64,000 nucleotides of DNA from Psammoneis japonica. Its lineage: Eukaryota. The stretch lies in the NCBI GenBank assembly GCA_008632985.1, contig QPGO01000008.1:476979-540978 (forward strand), read 5' to 3'. The notes under the pieces were generated by a model that was not told the origin of the DNA, made no database searches, and was given only the letters and a program-made list of their open reading frames with translations. Each line of letters starts with the position of its first letter. The first letter of the stretch is position 1. A program made the translations under genes and the position numbers. Below, piece by piece: positions 1-58,255 of the stretch.

Positions 1-240
1 TGGCTGGTGAGAAAACAAAAGCTCTCAGCTTTCTGGACAACGCTGTGTGCAGCAACAGCCGTTTGGTCAAATTCGTGTGACGAAAAGCACAGCAAACAAA
101 ATTGGCCACTTTTTTTTTGTTGCACATTCAAAGTCTTTTCTGGCTTTTTTGACAACTTTCACAGCACATGATGCAGAATGAGCAGCTGGCCACCAATGGC
201 TTCTCTCTCTCTCTCTCTCTCTCTCTCTCCAGAACGAGCA

Positions 241-420
241 AACGATCAAAATTGTTGAAGCCAATTTTCCATCAAATGTGACAAACAGACAGTGCCAGCA
301 GCCAAGGTGGAGCTGCTCAGTTGGACATTTGTCCAACCATTTCAATGAACAGCAGAAACAACAATGTCAGCCAAAGTCAGGAGAATGAGACTTTTGCAGT
401 GGCTTCATCAGTGGCTGGTC
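241..420. repeat. Terminal direct repeat of the PLE, copy 1, flanked by (CT)n tracts
   Basis: aagccaattttccatcaaatgtgacaaacaga...ggtggagctgctca.ttggacatttgtccaaccatttca...gccaaagtcagga...gacttttg...cttcatcag is shared with 3730-3908. Confidence 0.9.
368..417 (-). ncRNA. Type I hammerhead ribozyme-like motif (decayed), copy 1
   Basis: Minus strand: cagcca-CTGATGA-agccactgc-AAAA-gtc-tcattctcct-gac-TT-tggctg. Stem I is cagcca/tggctg and stem III is gtc/gac. GAAA appears as cAAAA, consistent with CpG->CpA decay. Confidence 0.65.
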
Positions 421-421
421 A

Positions 422-462
<41 letters not shown>

Positions 463-3400
463 GGGCCACCCAGGGGTGCAGGAGGTGCAATGTTTGCAGC
501 AGGAAAGAGAAGGTTTCCAAGGTTGTGTGAGCGGCTGCAACAGACAATCATGTGGTCAAGGCCAATGTGTTGTCAAGCATGATTTTGAAGGTTTGAGAGG
601 GGTTCACTTGATGGCAGATCATTCAGGTGACAGGGGATGTGCAGGAAGATGGGATTCAACTGGGGTTCTTGAGTTGGTCTGGCTGCATTTCTAAAGATGA
701 GGTCGCAAGGTCGCACGCCTTTCAGAAGAGCAGCTGCAATCATCTGCTGGGCTTCTTGCAGCCTCGAGCTTGCAGTCAAAGGTGGAGCAGTCTCATTTTT
801 GCTTTTGCACCTGCATTGTTGGAGCAAAGATTTTTGAAGCAGAAGAGCACACCCATGATCAGGCCGGCGAGCACTCCAGGTGGATGAGCTGAGTGGGGTG
901 GAATGTGCACGTGGAGATTTGTTTTGTTTTTGTAGAGGGCAGTGTGAAGGTGGGAGCCTTGGAGCAAGATTGTGAGGTCCATGAAGTTAACTTGGTGGCT
1001 TCAGGTGCTCATGATCCAGGTGGTGTCAAAGTCATTGGGCCTGGAGGCAAATGCTTCCCAGGTGGTGGCATTGGCGGCTGTGTCTGCCATGTGCCAGATG
1101 CCAAAGACATCATCAATGAATCATTTGCAGCAAAATGGCTGGGAGCTAAACTCCTCCAGGAGCATGTCTTCATGAAGTGCACAATGTGGGGCAGCATGTA
1201 GAGGGGTGGGTGGTGTGCCCATGGTGGCTCCATTGCACTGGTGCCAGCTGGTGTCTCCGAATGTGAGTGCATCTTTGTCCATCACGATTCAGAGGGCTTG
1301 GATGATGGCATCCATTGGGTGCATCATTGCAGTTGTTTTTGTGACGTTGAAGACAGGATGCAATCAATCGACAAAGTGCTTTGTTGGCGGACATGTTGGA
1401 GCAGTGGGCCTCAGCATCAGATGTGAAGAGGAGGCAATTTGGTGGCATCTCCATTTGGACAAGTGCTTGTTTCATGTCCAGGGAGCTCTTGAAGTGTGTG
1501 ATTGTTGGTGGTGAGCAACCTTCTGGAGCTTGTCATCTAACCAGACACCTGAGCTGCAGAGCAAGCTGCTGCTGGCAGAGATGATTGGTCAGGATTGCAG
1601 TGGCAGGGGCTTGTGCTCCCCCATGGAGTGAGGCAGAAGACAGGGAACAGGTCTTCATTGGTTTCAAGGCAATGTTTTGGCTGCTTGCATTCCATTAGAG
1701 TGAGGCCAGCTCATTGTGCCTTGAGCCAATCACTGAGGAGTTTTTTGATGCAGCGTTCTTGGATTCTGGCTTCAAATTTGCTCAAGAATTGATGCAAGTT
1801 GGTGTTGTTAAAATGTCTTGGAATGCCATCTTGATGCATTCAGTCTTTTCAATGATGGAGAGTCCCAGGTTCTTGTCGCATTGAGCCTTTGTGAAGTCAT
1901 CTTGTTTGCAGAGGCAAGTGAGGACGTGACATTGGTGGGGCAGGAGGTGGGTTCTGCCTTGACATTTCACAAGAAGGTCAGTGACTTGTTTCTTGAAGGT
2001 GGTGCAACAGCATTTGATGATGTTGGCAAGTTTCCAAGGTGGAGGTGTCCAGTTAGACTGAAGGTGCATCATGGGGTTGCAATCTCCATTGTCATTGTTG
2101 GTTGGTGTGTTGGCAAAACATTCACATTTGTCAAGGTCTTGTTTGAATTGTCCAAGTGTTTGTTCTTGGATCTTGCAAGATTTCCCATTGTTGGTGAAGC
2201 ACGGTGTTGGAATGAACTTCAGACCAAGACCAAGCAGTGATTGAAAAGGTTTTTTGGTGGTTGTTTTGTTGCAGTGCAGTCATGAAAGGCAAGGTGTGAG
2301 GGCCTGCTGAAGTGGCACCAGGCAGGCATGCTTTGCAGTTGGATGCAAGCATTGTGTCAGAGTGTGCAAGATGGGTGGGTGACAAATCCACACGTGCAAT
2401 GGATTCAGCATTTGATCACCTCTGGTGCCTGTGCCAATTGGTGTTGGAGTGCTGTTGCTTTTTTTTTATGGCTGTTTGATTTGAAGTGGCAGTGAGTGCT
2501 TTTGTTGGTGCTGGCAGTGTTGTTGTCGGCATCGTTGGCTTTGTGGTTGTGCTGAGGGCATTGTTTCCTCAATTGATCCAATGAGGCACCTTTGCCTTTT
2601 TTTGTGATGAGGTGCCAGCGGTGTTGTTTCAGCCCCTCTGGTTGTTTGACTGCTGTGCTTTTATGCTCTTGATGCATTGAGCAAGTGAGTTGACCTGTTG
2701 GGAGAGTTTTTCAGCATTTTTCTCTTGGTCTCCTTGCAGACCAGTTCTTGGAGAGTGACGGGGTCAACTGCAGCTTCACCATCATTTTCCATGGCAACAT
2801 TCTTGGTGGCCTCTGTTTCAAAGTGTTCTGTGTTTGGTTTCTTCAATTGGAGGTTGATGTTGTGTTTCTTCTTGGTTTCCAGGTGGGTTTCCCAGAGGGA
2901 GCCATGAAGATGCATTCAAATGCCCAGAAGATCTTGCCAAGTTCAGTCTTGATTTTCTGTTGTTCAGCAGTGATGTGCAGAGTGGCTGGTGCTGGTGCTG
3001 GTGCTTGTGTGAGGAACAAGGAGTTGCCAGCTTGGCTGTCTTTTTGGGTGTTGGTTGGTTGAGCAGTGGAGCAACCAGTGGTTGCGGCAGGTTGTGGACA
3101 GTGTTTGCTGTCTTGCACTTGGCAAGAAAGGCATTGAGGTCATGAACCTTGATGCATTTTAGCAGTGTCTCATGATTGCAGTCAAGTGGTGTCGACAGAT
3201 GTGGTGATGCTGTCAGCCACAGGCAGCAAAACTTTCGGTTGCAAGTCAGATGGCTTTTGTGCATGAATCCAAAATTTCTTCAAAGATGACTTAGAGTTCA
3301 ATCTTGGTGGCTTAGACAATTTGCTTTTTGAGAGCTTGTTGGGTTGCAGAGATGAGGTTGTTGGTTTCCTCCTGCAGAACCAAAACTCCTGGCTCTTTTC

Positions 3401-3729
3401 AGTGGTTTTGACATTTGAAATTCGAAATTGATTTGGGCTGAGCGGGGGATGAACTCCTCATCTTTTTCCATCCACTGGATGTAAAAGGCCTTGTCATGGG
3501 CCTTGGCTTGCAATTGAAGATGATTGAGGGCAAGCTTCTCAAGGATGGCAGCTGTTTCTGGTTGGAGCAATGCAATGTGGTTCTCAATGCAGTTGGCAGC
3601 AGCAGCAAGGGGTGTCCTTGGTTGCTTGTTGGCTGGGTTGGCTGCTGCAGTTGAATCAAAATGCATGTGTTTTGGATTGGTGGTCCCGGTTGCAGCATCC
3701 ATTGTTGTTGTTTCACTCTCTCTTGAATG

Positions 3730-3908
3730 AATGATTAAAATTGGCAAAGCCAATTTTCCATCAAATGTGACAAACAGATGACACTGGCAGCTGAGGTGGA
3801 GCTGCTCAATTGGACATTTGTCCAACCATTTCAGCAAACAGCAGGCACAACAATGTTGGCCAAAGTCAGGAAAACAAGACTTTTGTGGTCTTCATCAGCG
3901 GCCAGCTG
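3730..3908. repeat. Terminal direct repeat of the PLE, copy 2 (partial copy 3 at ~4075-4172)
   Basis: Aligns by eye to 241-420. Confidence 0.9.
3858..3903 (-). ncRNA. Type I hammerhead ribozyme-like motif (decayed), copy 2
   Basis: Minus strand: ggccg-CTGATGA-agaccac-AAAA-gtc-ttgttttcct-gac-TT-tggcc. Confidence 0.65.
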
Positions 3909-4121
3909 CTGTTGTCAACGTGGGGCAGCTGTTGTGTTAAAAAGATCCAAAGGAGGACAGACAAGTTGACCAGAACAACTCAAATTTAATTGCCATCTCT
4001 CTCTCTCTCTCTCTCTCAAACAAACAAACAAACAAAATTGGCAAACACAAGCAGCTGAGGCAGGAGCCACTGGCTTGGATGTTTGTCCAACTGTTTGGCA
4101 AATGGCAGGCACAACAACATT

Positions 4122-4167
4122 GGCCAAAGTCAGGGGTGAGACTTTTGTGGTGGCTTCATCAGCAGCC
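4122..4167 (-). ncRNA. Type I hammerhead ribozyme-like motif (decayed), copy 3
   Basis: Minus strand: ggctg-CTGATGA-agccaccac-AAAA-gtc-tcacccct-gac-TT-tggcc. Confidence 0.6.
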
Positions 4168-5699
4168 AGCTGTTGTTGTTTATGTGGTTGAGGTTGTTGC
4201 ATCAATGAGATCTGAATGGTGGGGGAGGACAGGTGAGTTGACTTGGACGAATGATTTTTTCAAGTTAATTCACCGCGCGCTGTCTCTCTCTCTCTCTCTC
4301 GAATGAACGAACGAATCGGCGCAGCCTGTTTGTAACCCCACAAGAAAAAACTGGGGGGGGGGGGGGGCAGACAAGATGTGCAGGTTGCAGCAGGAGAGCA
4401 ACTCTCTCTCTCTCTCTCTCTGCAGGGGTGTGGAGCTGTGTCTCTCTCTGCCAACATTGCATGCCATCCTTGTCAACAAAATTGGCCTGAGAGTCATTCT
4501 TTTTTCAACAAAATCCTCTTTTCTGGGTCACTCCTGCCTCTCTGCTTTGCTCATCGCTGGCTCTCCTCTCCTGTGCTGGTGGCAGCAAGTGGTGGCTGGC
4601 CATCTCTTTGTGATTTGCTGCACCTCCTTTGCAGCAGTTTTTTGCATGAGAGACAAAGACACACGCTTTTGCTCTTCCCTGTCACATGTGCAAATCTTCT
4701 TCAAAATCTGTCCAGCTCTCAAGTCCAGCAGATGGCTTTTTTGCCAGCTCTTTGGCTCTTGGCTCTCATTGGTGCTCTCGGGGGGGCTGCTCCCATGTCC
4801 TCCAAAGTCTTGCCACCATGGCCTGCTCCCAGGTGGGCTTGGCAATGTGTTGGCTTGCTTGGACACAACTGCAGCTTCTTTTGGGTTCTCTCTTGAAAAA
4901 CAGGCAAGTTCCTTTTGTCCTTGCTTCTGCCTTCCACTGCAACATCACTGCAAGCAGCCCTCTTGGTGCGGGTGCAAAAGGGTGTGTGTTGTGCCAAGAG
5001 TTGTTGAGGACACAGAGCTCCAAAAAAAGAGAAGAGCTGAGTGGCAGAGTGGCATGAATGAAAGTCATTGAGTTGTGTGGTGCTGGCACCAGCAGAACTT
5101 AACAGCATCACATTGAAGCACTCAGTTTCATGCTGCTGCATTGGCAAAAACTCCATGCACATGACTGGTGCAGAGCAAAAAAGAGAAAAAGGAGGGAAAA
5201 GGAGAGAAAGAAAGAGAAAAAAGACAAAAAGAGAAGGAAGTGGAGAGATGCAAGTTGGAGCCAAACAACAACAGAAGCATGTTGATGCCAATTGTGCATG
5301 TGCCAGTGGCTGTGTGCACCATGTGCAATTGGCGCATTGCAGCGGGGATCCTTGCATTTCTTGCAAACCACTTTCTGATGCTTCTTGGGTTTTTCCAAGT
5401 GGACCAATCCATCAGACAACATGTTTGGGTCATGCAACATGGGGTGCAAAAGGGTCATGGCTTGTCAAAATGGTGGTGAAAAAAAATCATGGGGAAAAGG
5501 GTGGTGCACCACAAAAAAATGGGCAGCGCGCCAAAGGGCAGTGGTGTGACATTGGTGCTCATGGTGGGTTGGGCCTTGAATCAGCAGAAGCCTCATTGTC
5601 AAGTGAGTTTTGTGAGAAAAAGCTGGAGCTGGAGCTGCTGAGCTTTGGTGGGAATCTGTTGACATGACAACTGGTTCTTGGCTGTCTGACCCATTCAAA

Positions 5700-6860
5700 G
5701 GCTCTGGCTCAAAGGGCTGGGGAGCTCAAGTCCCCTGGTTGTGGCTGAGTGCCTTTCAAGCCTCATTCCTTGATGCTTCTGCAGCTGTGATGGCCATCTT
5801 CAAATTCATCTGCCACTGCTTGCGGAAAGAAATCAAATGACCCACACACTTTAGAAATCTCAAGTTCCTGCTTGCTTTTTTTCAGCTGAGATGAGACCTG
5901 CACAAAATGTTGGCTCCACTCTTCATGCATGGCTTGGAAGGTTTCACATGCACTCAAGAACTGACCTTTCCTGGACCAACCTTTCCAGCAGCATCTTGAA
6001 CAGCAACTGCTCTTCTTTTGTGGCAACAGGTGTGCACTGTAGAACTGAGTCCATGGTGAGCCTTGCAGTGAGCTTCCAAGATGCAGGTGGCAGCTCTTTG
6101 CATGGCTCTCCCCTTTGGTCACTTGACTCAACATTCAGCACTGTTCCAAATGTGGGCCTCATGACAGGGGTGCCTTCATCAAAAGATGCCCAGTCAGAGC
6201 ATTTGGTGGCATCATGCACCCATCAACAAAGTTTGTTCTTTGCATTCACAAGAGAAGTGCCACAGTCATGAATCCTGGGGAAGCCTGGACAACATTTCTC
6301 TGATGCATGCCAACTCTGGACCAGTGCAAACTTGGCCAAATGATCATGCACACTGAGAATGCCCTGACTTGGTGGCACCTGTTCCTCAAAAACAATGCCA
6401 CAGCTGCAGTCTGTTGCTGTCATTTTTTGGGTCTCTGTTGATGTCAAGAAGCAGAGTTTAGAAAGAAACACATTTTGGGTCAGAAAGCTCACCACATGAG
6501 AAAGCCTCCAAAACCTGCTTGGCATCAGCTCATGCTTGTGCATTGAACAAAGGCTTCTGCATCTCCGAATCAATCTTGTCCTGGAAGCAGTCACATGCAA
6601 TGTTCACATGATGGCAAAGCAATTTTGGATGTGGCGCAAGTCTCCAGACCTGTTTGCTGACATGTTGAAAATTGTGGTCTGTGCTGCATGTGCCAAGTTT
6701 CAGCCTTTGCTTGATGGAATGCCACAAACTTGTTTCTCTTGTCATCACAGTCATGTGCAAAAATGGTGCCACACAGTGACACAAAAAATGTGGCTTTCCA
6801 GTCATCGTGTGCTGGTGCTCCAGCGCATCTCATGAAATGGAGAGCATTGCCCAAAACTCA
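5700..6860 (-). mobile_element. Decayed DNA-transposase-like relic (DxxH-type motif, superfamily uncertain)
   Basis: Fragments GNALHFMR...HDDWKATFFVSL..TIF (likely G-D-A-x-H-F-M before CpG decay) and VWRLAPHPKLL...FQDKIDSEMQKPLFN, in CpG/TpA-depleted sequence. Confidence 0.4.
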
Positions 6861-7117
6861 GCACAATGCCTCAAGAGCCTAAGACGCACTGTAAGTTTGT
6901 CTACTGTTGTGCGAGTAGGTTGGCAAGTGCGTCACACCTTTTCTCGGTGGCAGCTGCCGGCACGAGTAGAATTTCAAACCAAGAAGAACAGCTCATAGAG
7001 ATCCCTGCTTGTTAGATGTGTTCGGGGATGTGCCGGCACACAGTAGAAGAGACTGCAAATCTACAGCTACCATCATTGCAGCTTATTGGAGAATCGTGCC
7101 TTTTAAAAATGGCTTAG

Positions 7118-9952: not shown

Positions 9953-11229
9953 CGTGCTTTGCTTTTAGATAGCGATGCAGAGTTTTGCGCGAGTCGTCGA
10001 GTGCGACGACGAGGAGGAGGAGTCGATGACGAGAAACGCGGAGACGCGCATCGCGACAGGCGACGCAGTGCGGGCGCAACACACTCCGAATGAATGTTGC
10101 TGAGTGAGAGTGTGAATGTCAACAAATGTACAGCAATTTTTTAAAAGTTCGGCATTGTAGATGACAGGAAACAAAAAACAGTGATGAATGCGCAATTCAC
10201 GACAGAGTTTCTTGTGAACAGTCAGGTTGCAACTCCAAGTGCTTGAACTGCAATGCCAAAGAAGGGAAAGCTGACAAAGTGCACAGCAGCTGTTGTTGGG
10301 TTGTTGTGGGTCTCGCCCAGAATGAGCACAAGCCAGGATGAGCGAGGGCTGCAGTGTCTGGGTGCCGGCCACCCCATGGTTGTCTGGGATGAAACACAAC
10401 AATGGATGGATGCAGAAGCCAGAGTCAGAAGCACAGCACTAAAAAAAATTGTGTCATGCATGAGAGTCCCAGCAGGGGAGTTGTCATGGCAGATGCCCGG
10501 CTCCCAAAAAAGAGCGTCTTGTTTTGCATTCAAGCATCAGGCACATTGTGAGTCACTCAGTGCAAGCAATCAACATGGTGCAAGCACCCATCATCAAAAG
10601 CAGCAACCAAGCTGCTGCAAAGGGAGCCTTGTTGCTTGCAGCCACAGCATTTTTGGACATCATCAGGTGGTTTGTCAAGGTTGAAGAGATGCTTGGAGCA
10701 CCTCCAGGGTGCCAGCAACTGCTGCGCAGCAGTCAGTGGGGCAGCACTTGATGCAAAAGCACTCAATGCCTGCTCAAGATTGTCCATGCCAGCTGACCAG
10801 AGATTTGGTTGCAGTCATTGAACAAGGGGGCAAAGATGCTTGCTCAGATGTGTGCAGCATGCTGAGGCAAAACTTGGTCCAGCTCAAACACACAGCCAAG
10901 TTGTGTGTCTGGATCAAAGTGCACACAAGCAACAGCAAGCACAATGATCACTTTGCTGCAGCCAGCCTTGAGGATCCTGTTGATTGCCTTCTGAAGGCTC
11001 TTGGTGGCACAACAAGATGACTCTCACCCAGTTTTGATGGCATTGTCACCTTCACACAGTGGGGTCAAAGACAGCTGTTTGTCTGCAGTGCACTCAACCC
11101 ATGGCACTGCACAAAGAGGGAGAGAAACATCTGTGCATGCTGCAGAGTGAGTTGCAGTTGTGCCAGTGAAAAACCAAGATGGGCTCTCATGACTAGATGA
11201 GTTTGGGACATTTGCAGCAGAGAGCAGGC

Positions 11230-14200
11230 TGCCCAAATGACAGATGCTGGTTGCCTCAGTTTTGACAAGAAGGTGTGATGCAAGGAGTCAACATGCCTCA
11301 CCAGATGGCCTTTGGGCATGTTTTTCTAGAGGCCATGGCCAGCAGTGCAAAGGTTAACACACAGGACCCAGCCAGAGGACAGAGTGGAGAGCTGTGCGGC
11401 AGTGCCAGGGTGGGGTGGGAGTTGACAATGGCAGCAAACCTCCCAACATGGATTTGCTCAGCAGCTCAACAAATGGAGTGTGTGCAGCTGTTGTAGAGAG
11501 AAGAGGGCTGAGCCAAACACAGTGCACAGCAAGCAAAACAAAGCCATGCAGAAAGCTGCAAGAAAAATGCAGGAAGCTGTGGATGGGCAAGGTCCGCCAG
11601 ATGGCTCACTCCAAAGCTGTCATAAATTTCAGATGCCATGCAGCCATGAGCCATGGTGGCTCAAGATGAGACAGTCCTCAAATGGAGCCCACTTGAGTCC
11701 TGGATGGTGCATGAGTCAACCAGAACTGAGTTTGGGCAGAGGATTCCCCAACATTGTGCAAATCAAGGAAATGGCACGGAGCTCAAAATGGGCCCTTGAC
11801 AAACCCAAAGAGTGTGCAAGCTGCTGAGTGCATGGCAAAAAAGCAGGCACCTGGCCGTGGGACAGATCTGTGGCAACAGCTGAGAAAGGGAGCAAACAAA
11901 ATGCAGAGAATGTCCAGAAGCAACAGCTTGTGATGCAAACAACGACAACAATCTCCCAATCTCCTGCACACAGAACAAAGAGAGCAAATGAGAAGCTGCA
12001 GGGCAGAGGGCTGACTGTGGTCACAGCCCGGTCATCCTGGAGCAACCTGAGAGAAATTGGGGAGGACAGACTGGCAAAGAGATCATGGGGGCTTGGGAAA
12101 ATGAACAAAGGTTTCATCAGGGCAGCCACACACAATTTTCCTTCAACCTCCACTCTCTCAGGTCTCAGCATGTGGACATCTGGAGGCACATGGACTGGGC
12201 CCAGTCTCTGATGCCCCCCCCCCGTGGGACACTGCTGGCCACCTGAGGAGGAACTGGGTCAGGCAGCGAATGAAAACTCTGGTGCAATGACACCCACAGT
12301 GGATCCTCTCTGACTCCAACATCAACAGCAATTGCTGGCAAGGAATGCATCCACAAGAGCTGGTCAAAAATGAAGAAGCACATGGCAGCTGGACACAGCG
12401 GCACTCATTTTGGACATTTCAAAGCAGTTCATCATGGCACTCAACTTGCAGATTTTTTTGTGGCCATGGCTGATGCACCACACTCTTTTAGACAGAGTTC
12501 TCACCTGACATTTGGAAAGTTGGCCTCAGTGCCACATTGTGAGAAGAAGAAGGAAAATTTCAGAGCAGATGAGCTGCAGAATGAATGTTCTCATCTGTGA
12601 GGCACACAAGAAATCACAGTCACACAACTCATGAGAACATTTGGGAGGGAGACATTGGCTCACACACAGCAAAGGAAAGGGGAGCAATTGAAAGGGAGCA
12701 GTGCAGTGGCAACAGGAGAGCACCATTGAGACAGGCAGGTTGGCTGGTTCATTGCACCAAAAACAACCAATGATGACATTTCAAGGATTGGCTCCTGTCA
12801 CCCTCACCAGCAGGACCACCAGCATGTTAAGACCTCCGGGTCACTTTCCACAAAAGACACTGTGTGGGATGATGTGAACCTTCCACCACCGCAACAAATC
12901 ACTGAGTTGTTGACAAGGATGAACTTTGTGTTGCCAACGCTGAACGCACAATGAGATTTAAACATTCTGGTGCCACAGATCGCCAGAAGATTCAATTGGT
13001 TGTGGTCCGAATGACATCAAACCAAAGAGACAATGCACCGGCCCCAGCAACAATGCCGACTCAATGCCAAACCAACATGAACAAGCGCAAACAGAAAGAA
13101 ACAGAATGAGTGTGCACTCATGTGTTTCATGCAGCAATTGCAACAACATGCTCATGCCTTTTTGCAATGCTGCTGCCATTCATTCTTTTAGAGAAGTCAA
13201 AGAAAAAAACAACCCAAATCCATCCGGAAGAGCTGAGGTGTCCTTTGGGAGCAGTTGAAACAAAGCAAGAAAAGAAACAGAATGAATGAGTGTGTTCACA
13301 CATTTTGTGCAGCAATTCCAACAACACACTTGCACCTTTTTTCCCCAATGATGCTGCTCTTCATTCTTCCAAAGCTTCAAAGAGAAGAAAAACCATTGCT
13401 GTCCACATGAGCTGTTCTTGTGTCCTTTGGGAGCAGATGCAGAAAAGAAACAGAATGAATGAGCATCCACACATTTCGTGCCATCAACTGTCATTTCCCA
13501 CTTGGAAGGTCAGTTTGATTGTGGACAGGCAGATGCAAAAACAATGTTGAAATGAGCGGACATGAGAAATTGTCAAGAACATGTGTGCAAAGAGACTGAT
13601 TTCCATTGACTGCTAAATCCCACTTGGAAGGTTCAAACAATTGCCAATTCCCTGGGTTGATTGTTTGGGACTTGTTTTAAGAAAACAGGATTTTGAACAA
13701 GAGAGTGTGAATTCTGAACAAGAGCCACAACATTTTCCAGATGCAGTGGCAACAAGAGAGCACCATTGAGCCTGCAACAAATTGACAGTTGGCTTTTGAG
13801 GACCTGACTCTGCTTGAAAGCATTGCTGCAGGCCTGAGCTCACTGGATGCAAAATCATGCTTTGACAGGGTTGTGCATTCAACTGTGGGAGTCAGTCCTG
13901 GGAACCAAGATTGGCAAGGTGCCCATTGAGATGATGTTCTCCATGCTCAGCAACTTTTGCACTGTGACAGCACCCATTGTGGGACATCTGAGCTCTGCTT
14001 TGGAGGAGCCAAGGTGTGGAGAAGATTCCAGGAATGGGGCAGGGAAATGGGTGGAGTGGGAGCACTTTCTGTTTGGGCTGCACCAGCAAGTCCTTTCTCT
14101 TGGAGGAAAGAAGAGCAAAGTTCACACACACCCTGCAGACAGAGAAAGCAGCACAGTTTGTCAGTTTTTGTTTTGTGTGAATGGTTTTGACAGCCTTGAA

Positions 14201-16680
14201 CACCCAGGGGAGCAGGGGGAAACACTGCTGTGGAAGCAGCACTGGTGCACATTGTGCAGGAGACAAATGACCTGCAAAGAAGGCCAGGGTCAGGGCTGAC
14301 AGCTGCAGCAGCACAAAGAGATCATGCCAGAAAAAAACTCATGCTGGTTGTGGCTGGACTCAAGTGGAGGCAATTCCAAGGAAACTGGAGCCATGCAAAG
14401 GTGGATGATTTTGACTGCCAACTCTCTCAGTCAAGGACTTGAGCAAAACTGAGAGCCCATCAGATGCACCAGCAGGGCAGAGAAAGCAGAGAGGGCCTCA
14501 GTGGCAAGGCTTGTGGTTGACGAAATGACTGGGGAAGGTGAAGTGCCTCAGGCCAGCAGCAGAGGACTGGGCAGAAAAAGCACAAACTGGTTGCCTCAAC
14601 CACCAGGAAGAGTGCGCATGGCTTGACCTCACCATGGCAGCTGCAAAAACCTCAGCGCATCCACCACTGCTGACACTGGTGATCATGAAGAACCAAATGA
14701 AATGTGCTGCAGCTCCAGCACCAAAGTGGGGATTGCCAGGAGCAAAGGGGTGTCTGCAGGAACATGGCAAGGGGCACAGCATGTGGCCCCACAACCCACC
14801 AGGGTCTGGGAACTCAAAACTTGATTCACAACAAAGTGCTTGTCCCAAGTGGCCACACTTCTCAAACAGCAAAGGACATGATCACATGAGAGCTGGTGTG
14901 CAGGCAAACTTGCAGCAATGCCAACTTGAGCCAGGCACACCAGGGCAGTTCCTTGACAACAGTCTTGGTGGCTGTGCCATGCAGCAGTCACCTGCACAAC
15001 ATGCCACCTGGATCAAGGACATGTGGAAGCATTGCAAGTTTTACATTGAGCTGGATGTTCCAACTTTGCTGCCTCACAGGAGTGATGACAAGTTTCTCAT
15101 CCCTGAGTGAGCTGGCTGGGGAGAGCAGGTTTCAAAGGGAAGAAACTCAAGAGACTCAACCCCTTTGTTGGTGCAGGAAATCATGGCATTGGATGTCACA
15201 GTGGAAGGTGGATGGAAAGCATGTTGCAAGACTGCTGCTGGGGGAAGCTCCCCTGCATTTCATGACCCCTGTCCAAGAGCACTTTGACTGCCTTGAACAA
15301 CCAAGGTCACCCAACATGCAGGACAGCTGGAGGCAGGGGGTGGAAGGAAGTGCTGGAGCACATGAGCAAACAGAACAGCAACAACCCCTTGCAGAAATGG
15401 ACAGACAAGCAAAGAGAAAAATGGCCTCCCTTCATGAGCACAGCACAGAGGAACAGATGTGCATGAACAAATGCAAAATTGCACTTGGAAGTGTTGCACC
15501 CCAGTCTCAGGCAGAATGACAAGATCTGGACAAAGGTGCTGCAGATGTGCAGGAGGGGAAATGGCCAACACCCCGCCCCAAACAACATGGTCCAAACAAA
15601 ACTTTGTTGCTCAGACATGACAACAATGGCAGCAGGAGCAGCGCCAGAGATGGGCTTGCAAGAGGAAGTTGCTCCCATCCACTCAAGCAAGGCAGTTGAG
15701 AACCTGCATCCAGACATCTGTCAGTTGGCAGAAGGTTGTAAAAATGATGATGATGGGGCAGAGATTGCCCAGACAATTTTAGATGGTGCTGAGATTGAAG
15801 CCTCTCAGATGGCTCCCACCAACAAGGCAAAGGGACCTGTGCATGGGTCATGTGGCAAGGAACAGAGGATGATCACAAAGCAGATTGATTTGACAAAGCA
15901 AGAGAGGGCCTGGTGGTGTGGAGCAGTGGCAGTGATGACCCCTGCTTCTTGTGAACTCTCAACAGAGCAGCGCAAGGGAAAGCGATGATTGGCTGTGATG
16001 CCAGCCAGGCTTCTTTGCAAAACTCCACAAACCCGGGCGCTACAAGCTTGTGGCACACCACAAACAATGAGATTGCTTTCCTCTGTTCACCTCTGTCTGC
16101 ACAAACTGCCAAGTGAGTGGGACCCAATCTGTGTCAATGGACACCCAATGACCACATTTTGCCTGCAAGCTCCTGGGGCTTGTTTCCACTGCCCCAAAAG
16201 AGTGTTCATGTGGGTGCAAGAAAAAAAGAGAGATTGGCAGAGGCAAAGGAAACTCAACACAAGCTGTGAATCCAGGGTGAGATGCAGCCCTTTTGGACAG
16301 GAGACAGGAAGACAATGTCAAACTCAGCAACAGAAACAGGGTGCTCCAATGCCAGATGGACAAAGAGAGGTTTTTGTGCCAAGAAGTGAAGGAGGTGGCT
16401 GGGATTCCCAGGAAAAAGCTGTCTTGGACTTGAAACCATCCAGAAGATGGTGGGTTGCTTTGTGCGCATCTGGGCAGTGTGGAGTGAACAAGGTGCTTTT
16501 GCAGTGGCTGGAGCAAACAACCCATCCAGTCTGGCCTGATTTCTTGATTTGTCTTTTGGTGTCACCAAGTCTAAGAAATTTGTCCTTGTGCACTTTCAAA
16601 GATGAGCTGCTGGTGCTTTCAACTTCACAAGTGTGTTCTAAGCAGATGCTCTTGGTCTGCCATTTGATTGATGCAACTTG
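11230..16680 (+). mobile_element. Decayed non-LTR retrotransposon (LINE) with RT and probable C-terminal RNase H, diatom type (tentatively Ambal-like)
   Basis: Remnant motifs: KLQGRGLTVV (~11990); SGTHFGHFKA (~12398); EKKKENFRADEL (~12541); DAKSCFDRVVHS (13846-13881); GMGQGNG (~14030); GLPGAKG...GSGNSKL and TWIKDMW (14730-15030); RNase H-like IGCD and NGH near 15990-16145. Confidence 0.75.
12731..13741. mobile_element. ~1 kb insertion inside the LINE RT, flanked by a 29-bp direct duplication and containing ~180-bp tandem repeats
   Basis: tgcagtggcaaca(g/a)gagagcaccattgag occurs at 12702-12730 and 13742-13770. Tandem units begin at ~13090, ~13268 and ~13441 (aagaaacagaatga...gtgtcctttgggagcag). 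Confidence 0.7.
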
Positions 16681-17350
16681 AAGTTGATTTCAAGTTTTTA
16701 AGAAAATGCTGCAGGATTTGCAGAAATGCCCCCAGAAAAAGATCCAAAAATTGCCTTTCTCACTTGCTGAGGACATGGCTGCATTTGCATTTGAATTTGA
16801 ATTTTGTTTTAAATTGGCCAAAGCCAGTCTAGAAAGGAGCACAGCAAAGATCATTTTTGATCAAGGAGGTGCCTCCAACCAGTGGAGGAGGTTCTGCATG
16901 CACTGGCTTGCCATGAGGAGAAGGGGCAAGGTGGAGCAGCAAGGGCACAAATGCTCACAAAAACTGTGGCTGTGGTCATTCAAGGCAGGTGCTGACCCCA
17001 AAATGATGAAAATGCTGCTGCAGCCACTGTGAGAGTTGAAGGATGATGCACACATGGAGTGCGCAGCACTGCAGAATGAACCAACCCAGGATGCCACTGA
17101 TGCACAAGATGTGCTCAGATGGAGCCGGGGTTTGTGAAAGGGTGTGTGGCCCAGGATTGGAAAGTTCGCAGGAGATGGTGCCTGCTGCTGCCAAGCCAGC
17201 TGCTTCTGACCATGCACCTCAATGCTGCACTTCAGCTGCCCCTTGCTGTCAAACCTGGTGTTTGCTTTTTTAGCATGAAACTGCAATTCAACAATTTTCT
17301 GTGAGACTTGCTCCTGACATCATGTGGCTCTTTTTGCGCCTGTGTGCACA

Positions 17351-38934: not shown

Positions 38935-39199
38935 TGTTTCCGACTCAAAAACTTGTAATATCAAAAAAGTATGGCTTCAAAGAGCAACGTGCCGAGGCAG
39001 GACAATCTCAGACGATGGTGCTGTTTTGGCTGATGTTGTCAACGTTGACACGCTTGCGAGAATGATGATTCAGCACCCGATCTTTTCGAGAGCGATGCGA
39101 TGGTCAGGATCGTGAACACGTACGTCAACGAGCGACGTGCAGACATTCAGCAGTCGATCCGACTAACTAACTAACTGAATGGATGCACGGACGATTGTG

Positions 39200-40230
39200 C
39201 ATTTGCGGTCGGAAAGCAAGGACTGGACCACTTCTGTCATGGCAGCTGGTAGAAGCACAGGATTCAATCAATCAAAGCAACTGTTGCTGGTTAGCACTTG
39301 TGCTCTTTGTGGGCTTGCTTTTGTTCAGCCAGGGTGCACCAGCAGTGGAATGATCATCCGGAGAGAGAGGAGAGAGGAGGAGAGGAGGTGAGCACCCCCA
39401 CTCCAGAGATGCTGCAACACATCATGTGCCCAAAGAGGGAAAAAATGTTGTGCAAGTTGGCTCAAACTGGGCAACAGGTGCACAAGGGAGCAATGCCATC
39501 AGTTCATTCTGTCACAAAATTGAGGTGAAGCGGTCCCTGGTGCAGGCTCTTGGTGTGTGAGAAGCAGAGGGAAAAGAGAGAAAAAAGCCCGCCATTGGTT
39601 GCCCAGTGCAAACATGGCAGTGCATTTGGGCAAGCAGGCTGCACATGGGGAAAGCAGAAAAAAGAGCTGCTCAGTCATGGGGAGCTTTTCAGTGGCTCCA
39701 ACAGTTGTGCCTCATTCTTGGCAGCCTTCTCCTTCACTTTGATGAGGAGTGCTGCCACAGCACACTCATTGCTCAATGTTCACACTGCCTCTTTTGAGAC
39801 TGTCCCAAATGTTCTCATCATTGCATGGAAGCACTCTTGCCATGAGCTTGTCAATGAATTCTTTCTCTGTCTGCAAGTCTGTTGTGGTTGAGATTTTTTG
39901 GAGGGGAGGCAGGCCGGTCAGACAATTGATCATCATCATCACGCAGACAGAGTCACCTGGGCATTGCTCTTTTCTTCGACAGGGTGTCAAGGATCATCAA
40001 GTCATTGTCATTTCTGATGGCATTGTCACCTGATCCAACCATCATCTTGGTGGCCTTGGATGCAGAGTCTAAGAACTCATTGACAGGAGGCTGACAGGGA
40101 TTGTTTGTTTTCTGTTTGTATTTCTTGGGTAATTGGCCTCACATTAGTCAGCTGAATTTCTTGTGAGAAGCAACGGCGCCATTACATTTGGTGCCGTTGG
40201 TGGAGGTCTTCATGGTGAGTTTTGGGATGC
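39200..40230. other. CpG/TpA-depleted decayed repeat block, origin unidentified
   Basis: Abrupt compositional switch; no Tyr-containing ORFs. Confidence 0.6.
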
Positions 40231-48899: not shown

Positions 48900-51150
48900 A
48901 TGCCACTTGGCATTCTCAATAGAAATTAGAGCACTGTGCGGCACTCACACACTTGTACAAGCAGCCGGATGAAGTTAAATGATTGATGCAACGCAATTCG
49001 TTTCACTCCGGTGCTGCGCGAGTCGGTACCATCAAATGTGAATGTTCTGCCTGGTACTTGGGCTTAAGATCAAGAGATACCTCGGTGGACGTCTCAAGAA
49101 GTTTAAAGCACGATTTTGTGTGCAGGGGAACCATCAACAAGAGGGAGTTGATTTCTTTGAGACTCCATCTCCAGTGAGGGTTGGAAGCTTTGATGTTTAG
49201 TATGGTGCTGGATGCAACAATCTGCAAACTAGGATTTGGCTTCTTGCCACATGGCATTGTTTTTTAAACTGTGGTCATCAAAAACCATCTTTTGCAAGGC
49301 GAGAGAGAGAGAGAGAACTTCCCTTGAACGAAGATGCCAAGGAGCCAGATCTGGCGATTAAAAGTGCTGTCTGTTGGGAATTGGAACAGGATCAGGTGCA
49401 CTCAAGGCGCTTGTCAAAACCAGCTGCAAGTGGAGCCTCTTGAAGAGATTCATTTGAAGCTGTTCAAATTTAACTGGAATTGCCAAGCAACCTGCTGTGG
49501 ATGGAATCCATTCCAAAGTGATTGATCTGGTGGCCTTCTGATTTGTTGCATGAGCTGTTGATTGAGCCCTGGTTTATGGCGCAAACCCAGATGCCTTCCA
49601 TTCAAAGAACAGCAGCAATGGGATCACACCAAGACACACTTCATCAACAGAGGAGACAGGCCAGGTCAGCATCTTGAAGTTGACAAAACCAGAATCTCAC
49701 AACACCAAAATCCTGATGCAGCCAGTGCCCAAATGAAACAGGCACTTTGACCCCATCCAGTTGCAAAAAAGCAACTTGCACTCCCATTTGAATGACACCA
49801 AAGCTGTGCAATGAGACTCAAAGATGACCATCACATTTTGCTGAACTGCAATCCCCAGGTTTTGTCTTGTCAGTCAAGACAAGTCAACCGACGCTAAAGA
49901 AAGTTTTGCCCCACATGGTTGCAGCTGGGTGAAGTGCAGGCTGGCAAAAAAACCGATGCATGTCCTCTGTGGTGTTGCAGCATGTCAACTTGCAGCTCAC
50001 TTGCAACTCTCTGCATGTGCACATGATTGCCATTTCTCCAATGTGCTTGGCTCTGGAGATTCTGGTGCTTCCAAGGAGGGAGCAATGCCAACCAAAATTG
50101 TGCTGTGTTTGGTTGATGCTGCTGCTGTGCAATTGTCAGGTGTTGACTGCTTGGCTCTGGAGATTTTGGCTCTCTCAAGGGACATCAACCCAAACTGTGG
50201 TTTGCTTGATTGCCATGCCATTGCCAGGTGTCAACTTTCATCTTGCTCTCCCAGCATGTGGTGTGTCAACCATCAAGCCAGATGGAACTCAGAGTGTCAT
50301 CTTTGCTGCCACCATCATCATCAACCTTGCTCTGAAGCAGCTCATCAGTTCTCCTCTCAGAGCTCAGTGTTGAAGTTTTGCAGCTTGCCGAATGATGCGC
50401 GCTTGGTCTCACTGTCTGACACCAAACTCACGCTCTGCGCATGGCTTGCAAACACATTCCCAGCATGTTCTTGTCAACCACTGTCACCATGTCAACTGGG
50501 TGCAGAAGCCAAAAAGTGACCAAAAAACCCACAACACAACCCGAGTTGGGAAAGCAAATTTACCAGCACCTCTTCCACAATCATCAGTGTGTCACGTGTC
50601 ACTCTTTCATTGCAACATTGTTGTCTGTCTGTCCTGCAAAAACTTCTGCCTCTCCTCACTCTGATGTTCTTCCAACACTTGGAGTCAGCATTTTTGTCTT
50701 GACCAGCCAGATTGCAAAATGCTCTTTCTCCAGCTCTTTTGTCACACAGTCTCCCTTTGGTGAGCCAGCAGTTGGCTGCATGATCGTCAAAGCCTGCAGC
50801 AGGTGGGGGGGGGCTCATTTGGAGGTCAGAGCAGTTGACATGGCAGCCTCATGTTCCAAACCATTCACAGCACCACAGCATGTTGAGTGTGGGGCTCCCA
50901 CCACACTCCCAATTGCCCCCGGCCAGAGGCTGGTGATGACATGCTTTCTTTTAGAAGAAAAAGTTGAAGCACATCTCTGTCCCACGCACCTCCTGCACCC
51001 GCAACAGCAGCTTCCCTTGATTCTCGATGCACTGCTCCCAGGGCCTGCCACCACCCGGTCGACCATGCTTTCAATTGTATGCTCTAGCACTTGTGAGCAA
51101 CCCACAGTTGTTTTTGATTCACGACATGATGTTGCTGTGGGCAGGAGTAA
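48900..51150. other. CpG/TpA-depleted decayed block, possibly containing an LRR-like gene relic
   Basis: Compositional switch; short duplication tgcttggctctggagatt at ~50044 and ~50148 reading CLALEIL. Confidence 0.5.
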
Positions 51151-56550: not shown

Positions 56551-58255
56551 ATGGTCCATTGCAACAACAAAGCCGTTAACCGAATGCCCACTCTATATAC
56601 AAGTATTTTTGTGACCATGATGACATTGGTAACATGTTGTCACGGCACGTTGGCGCGAAACACTTTGGCTCTTGTAGCCGCCAAATCGAAAGGAAGAGTT
56701 CCGTTTACCACGTCATTGTCGCGATCCACTCCAAGGCAGGGCGTGGCACGTTGTTCTGATGCTTTTCCATCTGCAAGACCTTCTAATGTACGTTGTTTTA
56801 GTGTAGAGCGAAGCGCGGAAGAGTGGCTTGATATTTCCAGGATGCCTCTCTCAACCCTGTTATCCAGCAATCCTGGATTCAATTTGAACGAGTACACTCT
56901 CCCACCTCCACCGCCTAGTGTCCTTGATCTCAAGAAAGGACAACGAGTCGTATCATTCGGCGACGTTCATGGAGATATAGAAGCGTTGAAAGAATTCTTG
57001 GTAGTTGCCGGTGTGATGGACCCAAGATCATCGACCAGCAACCCAAAATGGGTGGGTGGAGAAACGATTTGCGTACAGGTGGGAGACGTTTTGGATCGTG
57101 GTGACGATGAGCTGGCATGTTTGAGATTACTGACTTCTCTGTCCCGACAAGCATCAATGGCGGGAGGGGCTTTGGTGTTGCTGTATGGAAATCACGAATC
57201 GCTCAATGCTGCTGGACTTTTTCAGTATGCCAATCAAGGAGGAAATGAAGAATACGAGAGAGAAATTGGCGCGCTTCTGGATACCAAGTTGGGCACTGAC
57301 CGATGGAGGCTTCAATTCGCCGGAAACGAGCCATCTCGATGGGCTGCACACGAGCCTGGCGGTCTACTTGCCGAGCCTCTGTTGGCCAACATGAATGTTG
57401 CAATGGTCGTTGGACGGACTGTCTTTGTACATGCAGGACTGACGGCAGAGCATTTGAGACGGTATGGCGGTCTCGACGGCATGAATCAAGCGGTGCGCGA
57501 TTGGATTCGTCAAAGTGAGTTTATCGAATGATGATGTTTCGTGACATGTCGTGTTTCGTTGGCTGTTGCTCAGCTTGTGTTTCTGAAAAAACTTTTGAAT
57601 TAGGCCAACACGGCGACAATAACAATTTGGGCGTGTACAAGTCTGCTGAAGAAGTTATCGAATCGGCTCAGACACGTGCCACATTAGCTTCTCAAACCAT
57701 GCCAGAGTGCCTAGGCGGGGGCATGGGCGCCGATGCACCAGTGTGGATGAGAGATTACAGCAGCCCAGCTGATAGTCCACCAAAGAACAAAAAGGCACAG
57801 AGAATGATTGGTAAGAAGAAGATGGGAGATGGTCTAGCTTTTCTTGGAGCTTTTCTTACCGTGCATGATTCTTATCCGTCTCTGTTTTTGTGATGCTTTA
57901 CAGATGAGGCACTGAACGAACTTGGCGGTGATGTCCAACGGATGGTTATGGGGCATACGCCTCAACGACATATCAACGCGGCGTTGGATGGTAAAGCTTG
58001 GAGGGTGGACGTTGGCGCGTCAAGGTATGTATGTTTGACCTGTGAGGGCAACCCAATCTGACAACAGTTTTCAGAATTGTCATATGCTAACTCTTCCGCT
58101 CTGCGTGTTTTATGCACAGAGGCGTCATGAGTGGCACGCCGGAAGTTCTAGAAATTATTCACGGCGGACAGGATGGAATGGATGAAATCAGCATTTTGAC
58201 GAGAGAGGGCGCTGTCGTTAGCAATCAACGACAACTAATGGAGATGCTGATATAG
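56551..58255 (+). CDS. Shewanella-like protein phosphatase, paralog 2; 4 exons
   Basis: Same motifs and same intron positions as 51333-52920. Confidence 0.9.

Follow-up and report, generated by a model that had tools for sequence, protein, structure and literature searches.

The window, by which we mean the whole 64-kb stretch of DNA analysed here, contains the remains of a retroelement at 205–4260 on the minus strand. Judged from its sequence, this is very probably one full-length, dead, endonuclease-deficient Penelope-like element (PLE) of the Coprina/Athena kind from a diatom, with an extra 5'-truncated unit, a fossil type I hammerhead ribozyme in each unit, and a hammerhead core lost by dinucleotide-specific decay.

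Three direct repeats, of which 156–180 nt are alignable at 78–84% identity, accompany the relics of two reading frames. Read along the minus strand, repeat unit A (3990–4260), an extra 5'-truncated pseudo-LTR unit, ends in a (GA)n tract ((GA)11, 3996–4017), and is followed by unit B (3725–3989), the pseudo-LTR at the upstream end of the full-length copy, which leads on to a short GAGAGAG and the start of ORF1, a layout shared with the related locus L008. The relic of the N-terminal part of ORF1 (3376–3705) retains 35% identity over 120 aa to ORF1 of L008 (E = 1.9e-12), and the reverse transcriptase (RT) relic (507–2329), which has frameshifts and stops, is covered by tblastn over residues 1–620 of intact relatives of ~600 aa, with all eight stops in the stretch 482–1288 being TGA. 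Unit C (205–470), the downstream pseudo-LTR, lies between two (GA)n tracts, with (GA)18 on the sense strand (425–460) separating the end of the RT frame from the hammerhead-like motif of this unit, as in L008, and (GA)14 (202–229) closing it. The order of features in L008 (hammerhead, short GA run, ORF1, RT, long (GA)n) matches that of the window element. As befits pseudo-LTRs in partial tandem, the repeat units carry the hammerhead-like motif, and in relatives a pair of hammerheads is spaced by one unit.

The RT translation contains the motifs GLKF (GxKF) and DKN, as do those of the relatives, and PMC8557442 and PMC13159263 give GxKF/Y and DKG/DKN as motifs of PLEs and Coprina. Thirty-nine homologues of ~480–740 aa match the RT piece (E down to 2e-47), one of them from Cylindrotheca closterium. 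Pfam gave no RT or endonuclease (GIY-YIG) family for four intact relatives, three having no family at all and the fourth one unrelated weak match, and nothing useful for nine ORF fragments of the element that are free of stops; the RT alignment likewise drew no meaningful match in a profile search of PDB. No endonuclease domain is present in the window element, the RT frame passing straight into (GA)n and the hammerhead-like motif. The nearest protein-atlas clusters to the RT comprise proteins of rotifers and arthropods carrying DUF8422, HTH_animal, and RVT_1, which we regard as a lead only. Among named organisms, those with the sequences closest to the neighbouring aldehyde dehydrogenase are diatoms. 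Across the 64 kb there is no match, with up to one mismatch, to a dimer of TTAGGG, the diatom telomere repeat unit, and (GA)n tracts are found in place of such repeats. A blastn comparison of the element with 78 relative loci gave only matches in microsatellites and two short ones in coding sequence, so that the untranslated regions are not alignable to those of the relatives.

Hammerhead-like motifs in the repeat units

A type I hammerhead-like motif is present on the minus strand in each of the three direct repeats, at 4171–4118 (relic A), 3907–3854 (relic B), and 420–365 (relic C), with a common layout of helix I strand, CTGATGA, A, 6–8 nt, AAAA, GTC, a loop of 8–10 nt, GAC, TT, and the second helix I strand. 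In relic A, CUGAUGA (4162–4156) is followed by the extra A (4155), with an A at position 12 (4146), helix III formed by 4143–4140 with 4131–4128, helix I by 4168–4163 with 4126–4121, and H17 at 4127, placing the predicted cut at 4127/4126. The equivalent features of relic B lie at 3898–3892 (CUGAUGA), 3884 (A at position 12), and 3863 (H17, predicted cut 3863/3862), and those of relic C, the best preserved, at 411–405, 395, and 374 (predicted cut 374/373), with helix I of relic C pairing 417–412 with 373–368. The CUGANGA box (C3–A9) reads CTGATGA in all three relics, G10.1-C11.1 and A15.1-U16.1 are kept, and H17 is always U; the GAAA box, with its G12, is absent and reads AAAA throughout. Helix I comprises 6 bp in each relic, and helix II 2 bp in relic C, one pair and a mismatch in relic A (the second pair being broken), and a single possible G-C pair in relic B following a 2-nt deletion. 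Helix III consists of the same 4 bp (A-U, G-C, U-A, C-G) in every copy and is capped by loops of 8, 10, and 10 nt, in line with the stem III kept and the loop varying that the original prediction had noted.

Searches of the window with R1, a covariance model built from the hammerheads of 10 related metagenome elements and excluding the window copies, recover relics A (29.5 bits, E = 5.4e-6), B (27.4 bits, E = 2.1e-5), and C (39.9 bits, E = 5.4e-9), all of these E-values being rough, in alignments with the three-helix layout of an open helix I and capped helices II and III. A further match at 57637–57677 (15.7 bits, E = 0.049) is without helix III and was taken as chance. The literal motif pattern occurs three times in the window and in none of 100 dinucleotide shuffles, and the core-only pattern (CTGANGA, gap, GAAA) matches nine times against an expected 6.7, so that no canonical hammerhead lies elsewhere in the window.

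Rfam reported no hammerhead match in the whole window at the gathering score, or in window 1–5000 at E up to 10. Its hammerhead families (type I, RF00163, and relatives) have the core and three-helix layout in common with the window copies, yet no model reports these copies or 12 relative loci at the gathering score, nor four of those loci at E up to 10. The silence of Rfam is discounted here as evidence, since canonical relatives are missed too. The whole lineage, canonical members included, is thus missed by the Rfam hammerhead models and found by a lineage model such as R1, and Rfam-based surveys therefore undercount stramenopile hammerheads.

Were the motif a chance look-alike within a repeat, with no ribozyme kinship, one might expect the imperfect core, the lack of Rfam matches, and the weak fold z-scores of the window copies (−1.3, −1.5, and −0.8), although the z-scores do not discriminate, with three relatives falling between +0.1 and −1.5. 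The minimum-energy fold is likewise a hammerhead only for copy C among the window copies, with intact relatives doing no better. However, an independent model drawn from relatives alone finds exactly three sites, whose position and strand are as in the relatives and whose loop 3 has a pyrimidine run in common with theirs. Mere resemblance is therefore exceedingly improbable, and is refuted by the R1 matches unless their rough E-values are off by over 4 orders of magnitude. The window motifs are homologous to the canonical hammerheads of the relatives and, together with the GxKF and DKN motifs and the diatom-like aldehyde dehydrogenase neighbour, the three R1 matches bear out the original prediction of three hammerhead motifs in the terminal repeats of a diatom PLE.

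Among the 78 relative loci, R1 finds 37 matches, all on the RT sense strand and representing 25 distinct hammerhead copies. These have CUGANGA (with one variant letter in two copies), G12, A13, and A14 in all 25, the extra A in 24, and a C-G step, that is CpG, at 11.1/12 in every case. In an alignment that is itself fitted to the model, helix cells are paired in 89.2% of cases, against 29–39% with the partners slid, and both sides change in 10 of 12 pairs, with G10.1-C11.1 and A15.1-U16.1 invariant. By these sequence and structure criteria the motif of the relatives is a real hammerhead. Of the 28 loci that retain a complete RT end followed by 600 nt or more, 21 have it downstream, the other seven having no R1 match there (two of them, L078 and L076, show weak matches with altered cores). 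Of the 13 loci that extend 1900 nt or more ahead of the RT, 10 have it upstream, and paired hammerheads lie 3.7–4.9 kb apart in L018, L019, L038, L063, and L066.

In active relatives the ribozyme comprises CUGANGA, one unpaired A, a helix II of 2–4 bp closed by G10.1-C11.1, GAAA, a helix III of 4–7 bp whose loop is rich in pyrimidines, and a U-H cut site, and is situated on the sense strand ~190–510 nt past the RT frame, with a second copy ~1.5–2.6 kb ahead of it. It would presumably cut read-through or tandem transcripts after H17, thereby providing the ends of unit-length RNA for reverse transcription.

Units A and B could instead be more than pseudo-LTRs, belonging to a short tandem repeat of retrozyme-like, non-autonomous character that arose from the element end and was perhaps once able to release a small linear or circular RNA. 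Their predicted cuts are 264 nt apart, same-genome contigs join units in several registers (back 250/241; skip 291/358), and animal retrozymes are linked to PLEs in a 2026 preprint (10.64898/2026.07.22.740005). Summed contig depth is also higher in the bins of the repeat (2648 and 5248) than in the interior (111–1472), although summed contig depth is not copy number. The same facts are explained by 5' truncation and partial tandems, described as the normal PLE insertion pattern in PMC8557442, and we consider a retrozyme-like origin unlikely.

Dinucleotide loss and the catalytic core

The element is strongly depleted in CpG and TpA, with observed/expected ratios of 0.15 and 0.07, compared with 0.78 and 0.48 elsewhere in the window, corresponding to a loss of ~85% of its CpG. 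Differences between the repeat copies follow the same pattern, with 13–15 CA/TG swaps per pair of copies and, between copies B and C, 13 such dinucleotide sites accounting for 26 of 42 transitions. At 11.1/12 all three window copies read CA where the relatives have CpG, and the catalytic G12 appears to have been lost because this CpG (C11.1-G12) is now CpA in each copy. The decayed relative L072 (CpG observed/expected 0.42) also reads CAAAA, and this, with the invariant C-G of the relatives and the depletion of the element, agrees with the earlier proposal that an ancestral cGAAA was lost at a CpG. According to PMC6155905, the hammerhead uses G12 as its general base, so that the change from CpG to CpA in the three units would have abolished activity, with helix II damaged besides in two of them. 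Both reading frames were destroyed by the same dinucleotide-specific decay that hit the ribozyme.

The covariation in stem I that was first offered as evidence for the hammerhead does not stand as such. Both changes are CA/TG swaps at mutually paired sites, and they are no evidence of selection. By our reckoning, when two palindromic dinucleotides that pair with each other decay at random, pairing survives in three of four outcomes; the covariation is a by-product of decay.

One aspect of the core change fits poorly with decay in place, as all three copies read CA and show no mixture of CA and TG, an outcome that we estimate to have a chance of ~1 in 8 under independent CpG decay, so that A12 may predate the insertion. 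The family may have spread in the diatom with A12, the hammerhead being dispensable or its A12 core active enough with host help, and CAAAA being ancestral to the insertion. The uniform CA contrasts with other inferred old CpG/TpA sites, which differ between copies; the repeat is multi-copy in the same-genome run (733 contigs aligned, 39 at one place), and Naiad and most Chlamys PLEs are described as thriving without canonical hammerheads in PMC8557442. Set against this are the retention of G12 in 25 of 25 distinct relatives, its role as general base, and the nature of the site, a CpG within an element stripped of ~85% of its CpG. Furthermore, of two same-genome contig snippets spanning position 12, one reads GAAA (with G at 11.1) and the other AAAA, with position 12 absent from the 40 of 734 contig differences listed. 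Spread with A12 is accordingly quite improbable, and loss of G12 by dinucleotide-specific decay of a once canonical core remains the preferred reading.

As to the cause, the ribozyme and both frames may have been lost to repeat-directed, dinucleotide-specific editing, taking CpG and TpA nearly completely to CpA/TpG, rather than to slow ordinary CpG decay, a proposal we find plausible if somewhat short of probable. Such a defence would kill a hammerhead at its catalytic base, because C11.1-G12 is always CpG, and for the same reason cytosine methylation and decay of silenced elements would strike this base directly. Other blocks of the window resemble the element, with CpG and TpA almost gone and sharp boundaries; a six-frame read-through of these blocks against Pfam returned no families. 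We regard this loss of CpG and TpA in bounded blocks as a more interesting lead than the ribozyme itself.

Comparison with known systems

Cervera and de la Pena (2014, PMC4209133) described hammerheads in the repeats that flank endonuclease-deficient PLEs of protists and fungi. In these PLEs they report that helix III is large and that helices I and II vary in size, and they figure a Thalassiosira oceanica variant. Protist PLE flanking-repeat hammerheads, diatoms included, are thus already published, and our findings add little to ribozyme biology. The motifs described here resemble the published descriptions in being type I, in both flanking repeats and on the sense strand, with variable helices I and II, one nucleotide between A9 and G10.1, and a conserved G10.1-C11.1, and differ in that the window copies are dead (A12). 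The extra A after A9, short helix II, and large helix III, previously suggested to define a distinct diatom variant, are traits already present in that work. A stable, large helix III makes folding as a monomer possible in hammerheads of this type. The minimal, dimer-type hammerheads of metazoan PLEs also lie within pseudo-LTRs and have an extra nucleotide after A9, but their helix III is a palindrome of 1–2 bp, their helix II is long, and folding takes two copies, whereas the window lineage has a helix III of 4–7 bp and a helix II of 2–4 bp.

Athena and Coprina elements, as described in PMC8557442 and PMC13159263, carry a 3' module of hammerhead, short spacer, and reverse-complement telomere repeats. 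The window element shares with them an endonuclease-less RT with DKN and a hammerhead beside a simple-repeat tract, and has two ORFs, as do Athena and Coprina-1_Alen. In contrast to these elements, however, the tract is (GA)n here, or (TG)n in close relatives, with no telomere repeat, and ordinary genes lie ~7 kb from the element copy. The presence of (GA)n/(TG)n tracts where Athena and Coprina have telomere-complementary repeats is a hint that insertion is primed at microsatellites and not at telomeres.

The combined loss of CpG and TpA resembles the TpA hypermutation of integrated viruses reported in 2026 for Bigelowiella natans. If the proposed editing is real, it would represent the stramenopile counterpart of that process, with an added CpG arm.

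Hammerhead motifs in the repeat units and in related elements

The minus strand carries three direct repeat units between window positions 205 and 4260 (A, 4260–3990; B, 3989–3725; C, 470–205), with 78–84% identity over 140–180 nt. Each has the layout CTGATGA, A, 6–8 nt, AAAA, GTC, an 8–10 nt loop, GAC and TT, with six base pairs possible between the stretches on both sides of the motif. A literal search for this pattern gives three matches in the window and none in 100 dinucleotide shuffles. Directly past the last (GA)n, window 170–201 (minus) holds ~20 nt like the start of unit C, the part of that unit ahead of its CUGAUGA box, after which the similarity stops, as if a fourth repeat unit had begun.

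Rfam yielded no match, either across the whole window at gathering score or in window 1–5000 at E up to 10, and relatives of the element were therefore sought. The RT piece of the window, with stops read as X, retrieved 39 homologues ~480–740 aa long with E-values reaching 2e-47; the diatom Cylindrotheca closterium is the source of one. Searching with an alignment of 25 of these homologues and the query then retrieved 78 metagenome loci. A simple descriptor permitting G or A at position 12 found 44 sense-strand motifs in these loci (29 distinct sequences, with one weak coding-region match left out); the single minus-strand match was regarded as chance.

A covariance model (R1) built from ten of the relatives' motifs in common register, and none from the window, bears out the original prediction of hammerheads in the three repeat copies, matching at 39.9 bits in C (420–365), 29.5 in A (4171–4118) and 27.4 in B (3907–3854), with rough E-values of 5.4e-9, 5.4e-6 and 2.1e-5. 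The sole further match lies on the plus strand at 57637–57677 and scores 15.7 bits at E 0.049; both core boxes and a helix I are there, helix III is missing, and the match is probably chance. Rfam matched none of 12 relatives at gathering score, nor four of these at E up to 10, and its silence on the window therefore says nothing; the proposed model search of the minus strand was empty with Rfam, which misses the relatives too, and positive with R1.

With a cut-off of E 0.01, R1 made 37 matches across the 78 loci, every one of them in the sense orientation of the RT. In the relatives' alignment, which is fitted to the model and so favours pairing, 89.2% of cells are paired compared with 29–39% when partners are slid, and 10 of 12 pairs show two-sided changes, with G10.1–C11.1 and A15.1–U16.1 invariant. 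Among 25 distinct relative rows, G5, A6, G8, A9, G12, A13 and A14 do not vary, and both the extra A after A9 and a U or C at the cut site nucleotide H17 occur in 24. This Penelope-like element (PLE) lineage thus has a textbook type I hammerhead, of which the window motifs are homologues.

A pyrimidine run in loop 3 persists across otherwise unalignable elements (e.g. window 388–379, L018:2534–2588 and L073:2960–3016). Of 25 distinct relatives, 12 have CTCC there and 20 have one of CTCC, CTCT and CCC; the run could in principle pair with the RNA's own (GA)n tract. Hammerhead-like stretches with altered core letters lie at the expected site downstream of RT in two further loci (L078:2990–3052, 13.2 bits; L076:4502–4557, 7.7 bits), and may be decayed or variant cores.

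Probable decay of the core and of helices I and II

C11.1–G12 is CpG in every relative and CA in all three window copies. G12, described in PMC6155905 as the general base of the hammerhead reaction, is therefore lost in the window copies, which with this residue gone are predicted to be dead. Loss of an ancestral cGAAA through CpG decay, as originally proposed, is supported by the CpG in all relatives, by a CpG observed/expected ratio (o/e) of 0.15 in the element versus 0.78 elsewhere in the window, and by the same CAAAA in the CpG-poor relative L072; however, three copies with CA and no CA/TG mix have a ~1-in-8 chance under independent decay, so A12 may predate insertion of the element. The family is multi-copy in the sequencing run (733 contigs aligned), with the window's own sequence represented by contigs with 0–2 differences. 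Position 12 lies outside the 40 listed of 734 contig differences to the window, and two contig snippets across it read GAAA and AAAA.

Two pairs of helix II remain in copy C. Copy A retains one pair and has a mismatch, and copy B, from which 2 nt are deleted, retains one. Only copy C among the three adopts a hammerhead shape as its minimum-energy fold, and fold z-scores are unremarkable for the window copies and intact relatives alike.

Covariation of stem I between copies, previously taken as support, does not serve as such. Over 206 aligned columns, copies B and C show 49 differences, of which 42 are transitions and 7 are transversions. At 13 dinucleotide sites one copy has CA where the other has TG, and both stem I changes are CA/TG swaps on both helix strands. 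Random decay of two paired palindromic dinucleotides to CA or TG would keep pairing in three of four outcomes, and the window changes are therefore no evidence for selection; the real covariation is among the relatives.

The element and its dinucleotide loss

The 3.3 kb interior between units B and C holds an ORF1 relic (3705–3376, minus), to which a relative's ORF1 aligns, and an RT relic (2329–507, minus), to which residues 1–620 of intact relatives' RT proteins (~600 aa) align. Both frames are broken, with eight stops in RT stretch 482–1288, all TGA. GLKF and DKN are present in the RT; PMC8557442 names GxKF/Y and DKG as PLE motifs, and PMC13159263 assigns the DKN form to Coprina. GIY-YIG had no match in intact relatives. 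Placement in Coprina or Athena is tentative and draws on motifs, on domain content and on a lead from a protein atlas.

Hammerheads lie 192–512 nt downstream of RT in 21 of 28 loci with enough downstream sequence and 1.46–2.6 kb upstream in 10 of 13 with enough upstream sequence, with two hammerheads 3.7–4.9 kb apart in five loci. One locus, L008, has exactly the window order (hammerhead, ~110 nt, short GA run, ORF1, RT, long (GA)n) and a similar ORF1 N-terminus. The closest named relatives of the neighbouring aldehyde dehydrogenase (Extubocellulus, Fragilariopsis, Amphora and Pseudo-nitzschia; 52–59% identity) indicate a diatom host.

CpG and TpA are nearly gone, and CpA and TpG in excess, in four sharply bounded blocks comprising the element and three others (window 1–7000, 10001–17000, ~39001–40000 and 49001–51000), with o/e of 0.04–0.42 for CpG, 0.00–0.18 for TpA and 1.3–2.6 for CpA and TpG, against 0.56–1.33 (CpG) and 0.33–0.73 (TpA) between blocks. 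The element has 33 CG, 19 TA, 507 CA and 368 TG, compared with 199–274, 105–176, 282–414 and 155–218 in intact relatives over the same length, the four-dinucleotide total being the same; all six conserved tyrosines are changed to His or Cys. Pfam had no match in the three other blocks. The signature resembles the TpA to TpG/CpA hypermutation described for integrated viral DNA of Bigelowiella natans (in a 2026 preprint, 10.64898/2026.01.13.699255), but has a CpG arm in addition; a literature search found no published report of such hypermutation in diatoms.

Microsatellite tracts and comparison with known elements

(GA)n tracts end unit A (window 3996–4017) and unit C (202–229) and part the end of RT from unit C (425–460), with a further tract at 4402–4421. 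In this endonuclease-less lineage the RT frame is immediately followed by a microsatellite: (GA)n for the window and for L008 (3708–3934), (TG)n or (GT)n for five of the close relatives, and (AG)n for a further one (ends of L001, L002, L003, L009, L010 and L006). Athena and Coprina, as described in PMC8557442 and PMC13159263, instead have telomere-complementary repeats at this place, and the 64-kb window contains no telomere repeats. The microsatellite may reflect priming on microsatellite DNA ends.

Cervera and de la Pena (2014, PMC4209133) reported hammerheads in every PLE that they examined, within the flanking repeats. The suggestion of a distinct diatom variant is not supported: PLE hammerheads with a nucleotide between A9 and G10.1 are already described there, as are, for fungal and protist PLEs, a large helix III and helices I and II that vary in size, and a Thalassiosira oceanica variant is named in a figure legend. 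Given these described hammerheads, and Coprina elements in Phaeodactylum (PMC13159263), the finding correctly identifies, in a dead copy, a feature of a kind that was already known.
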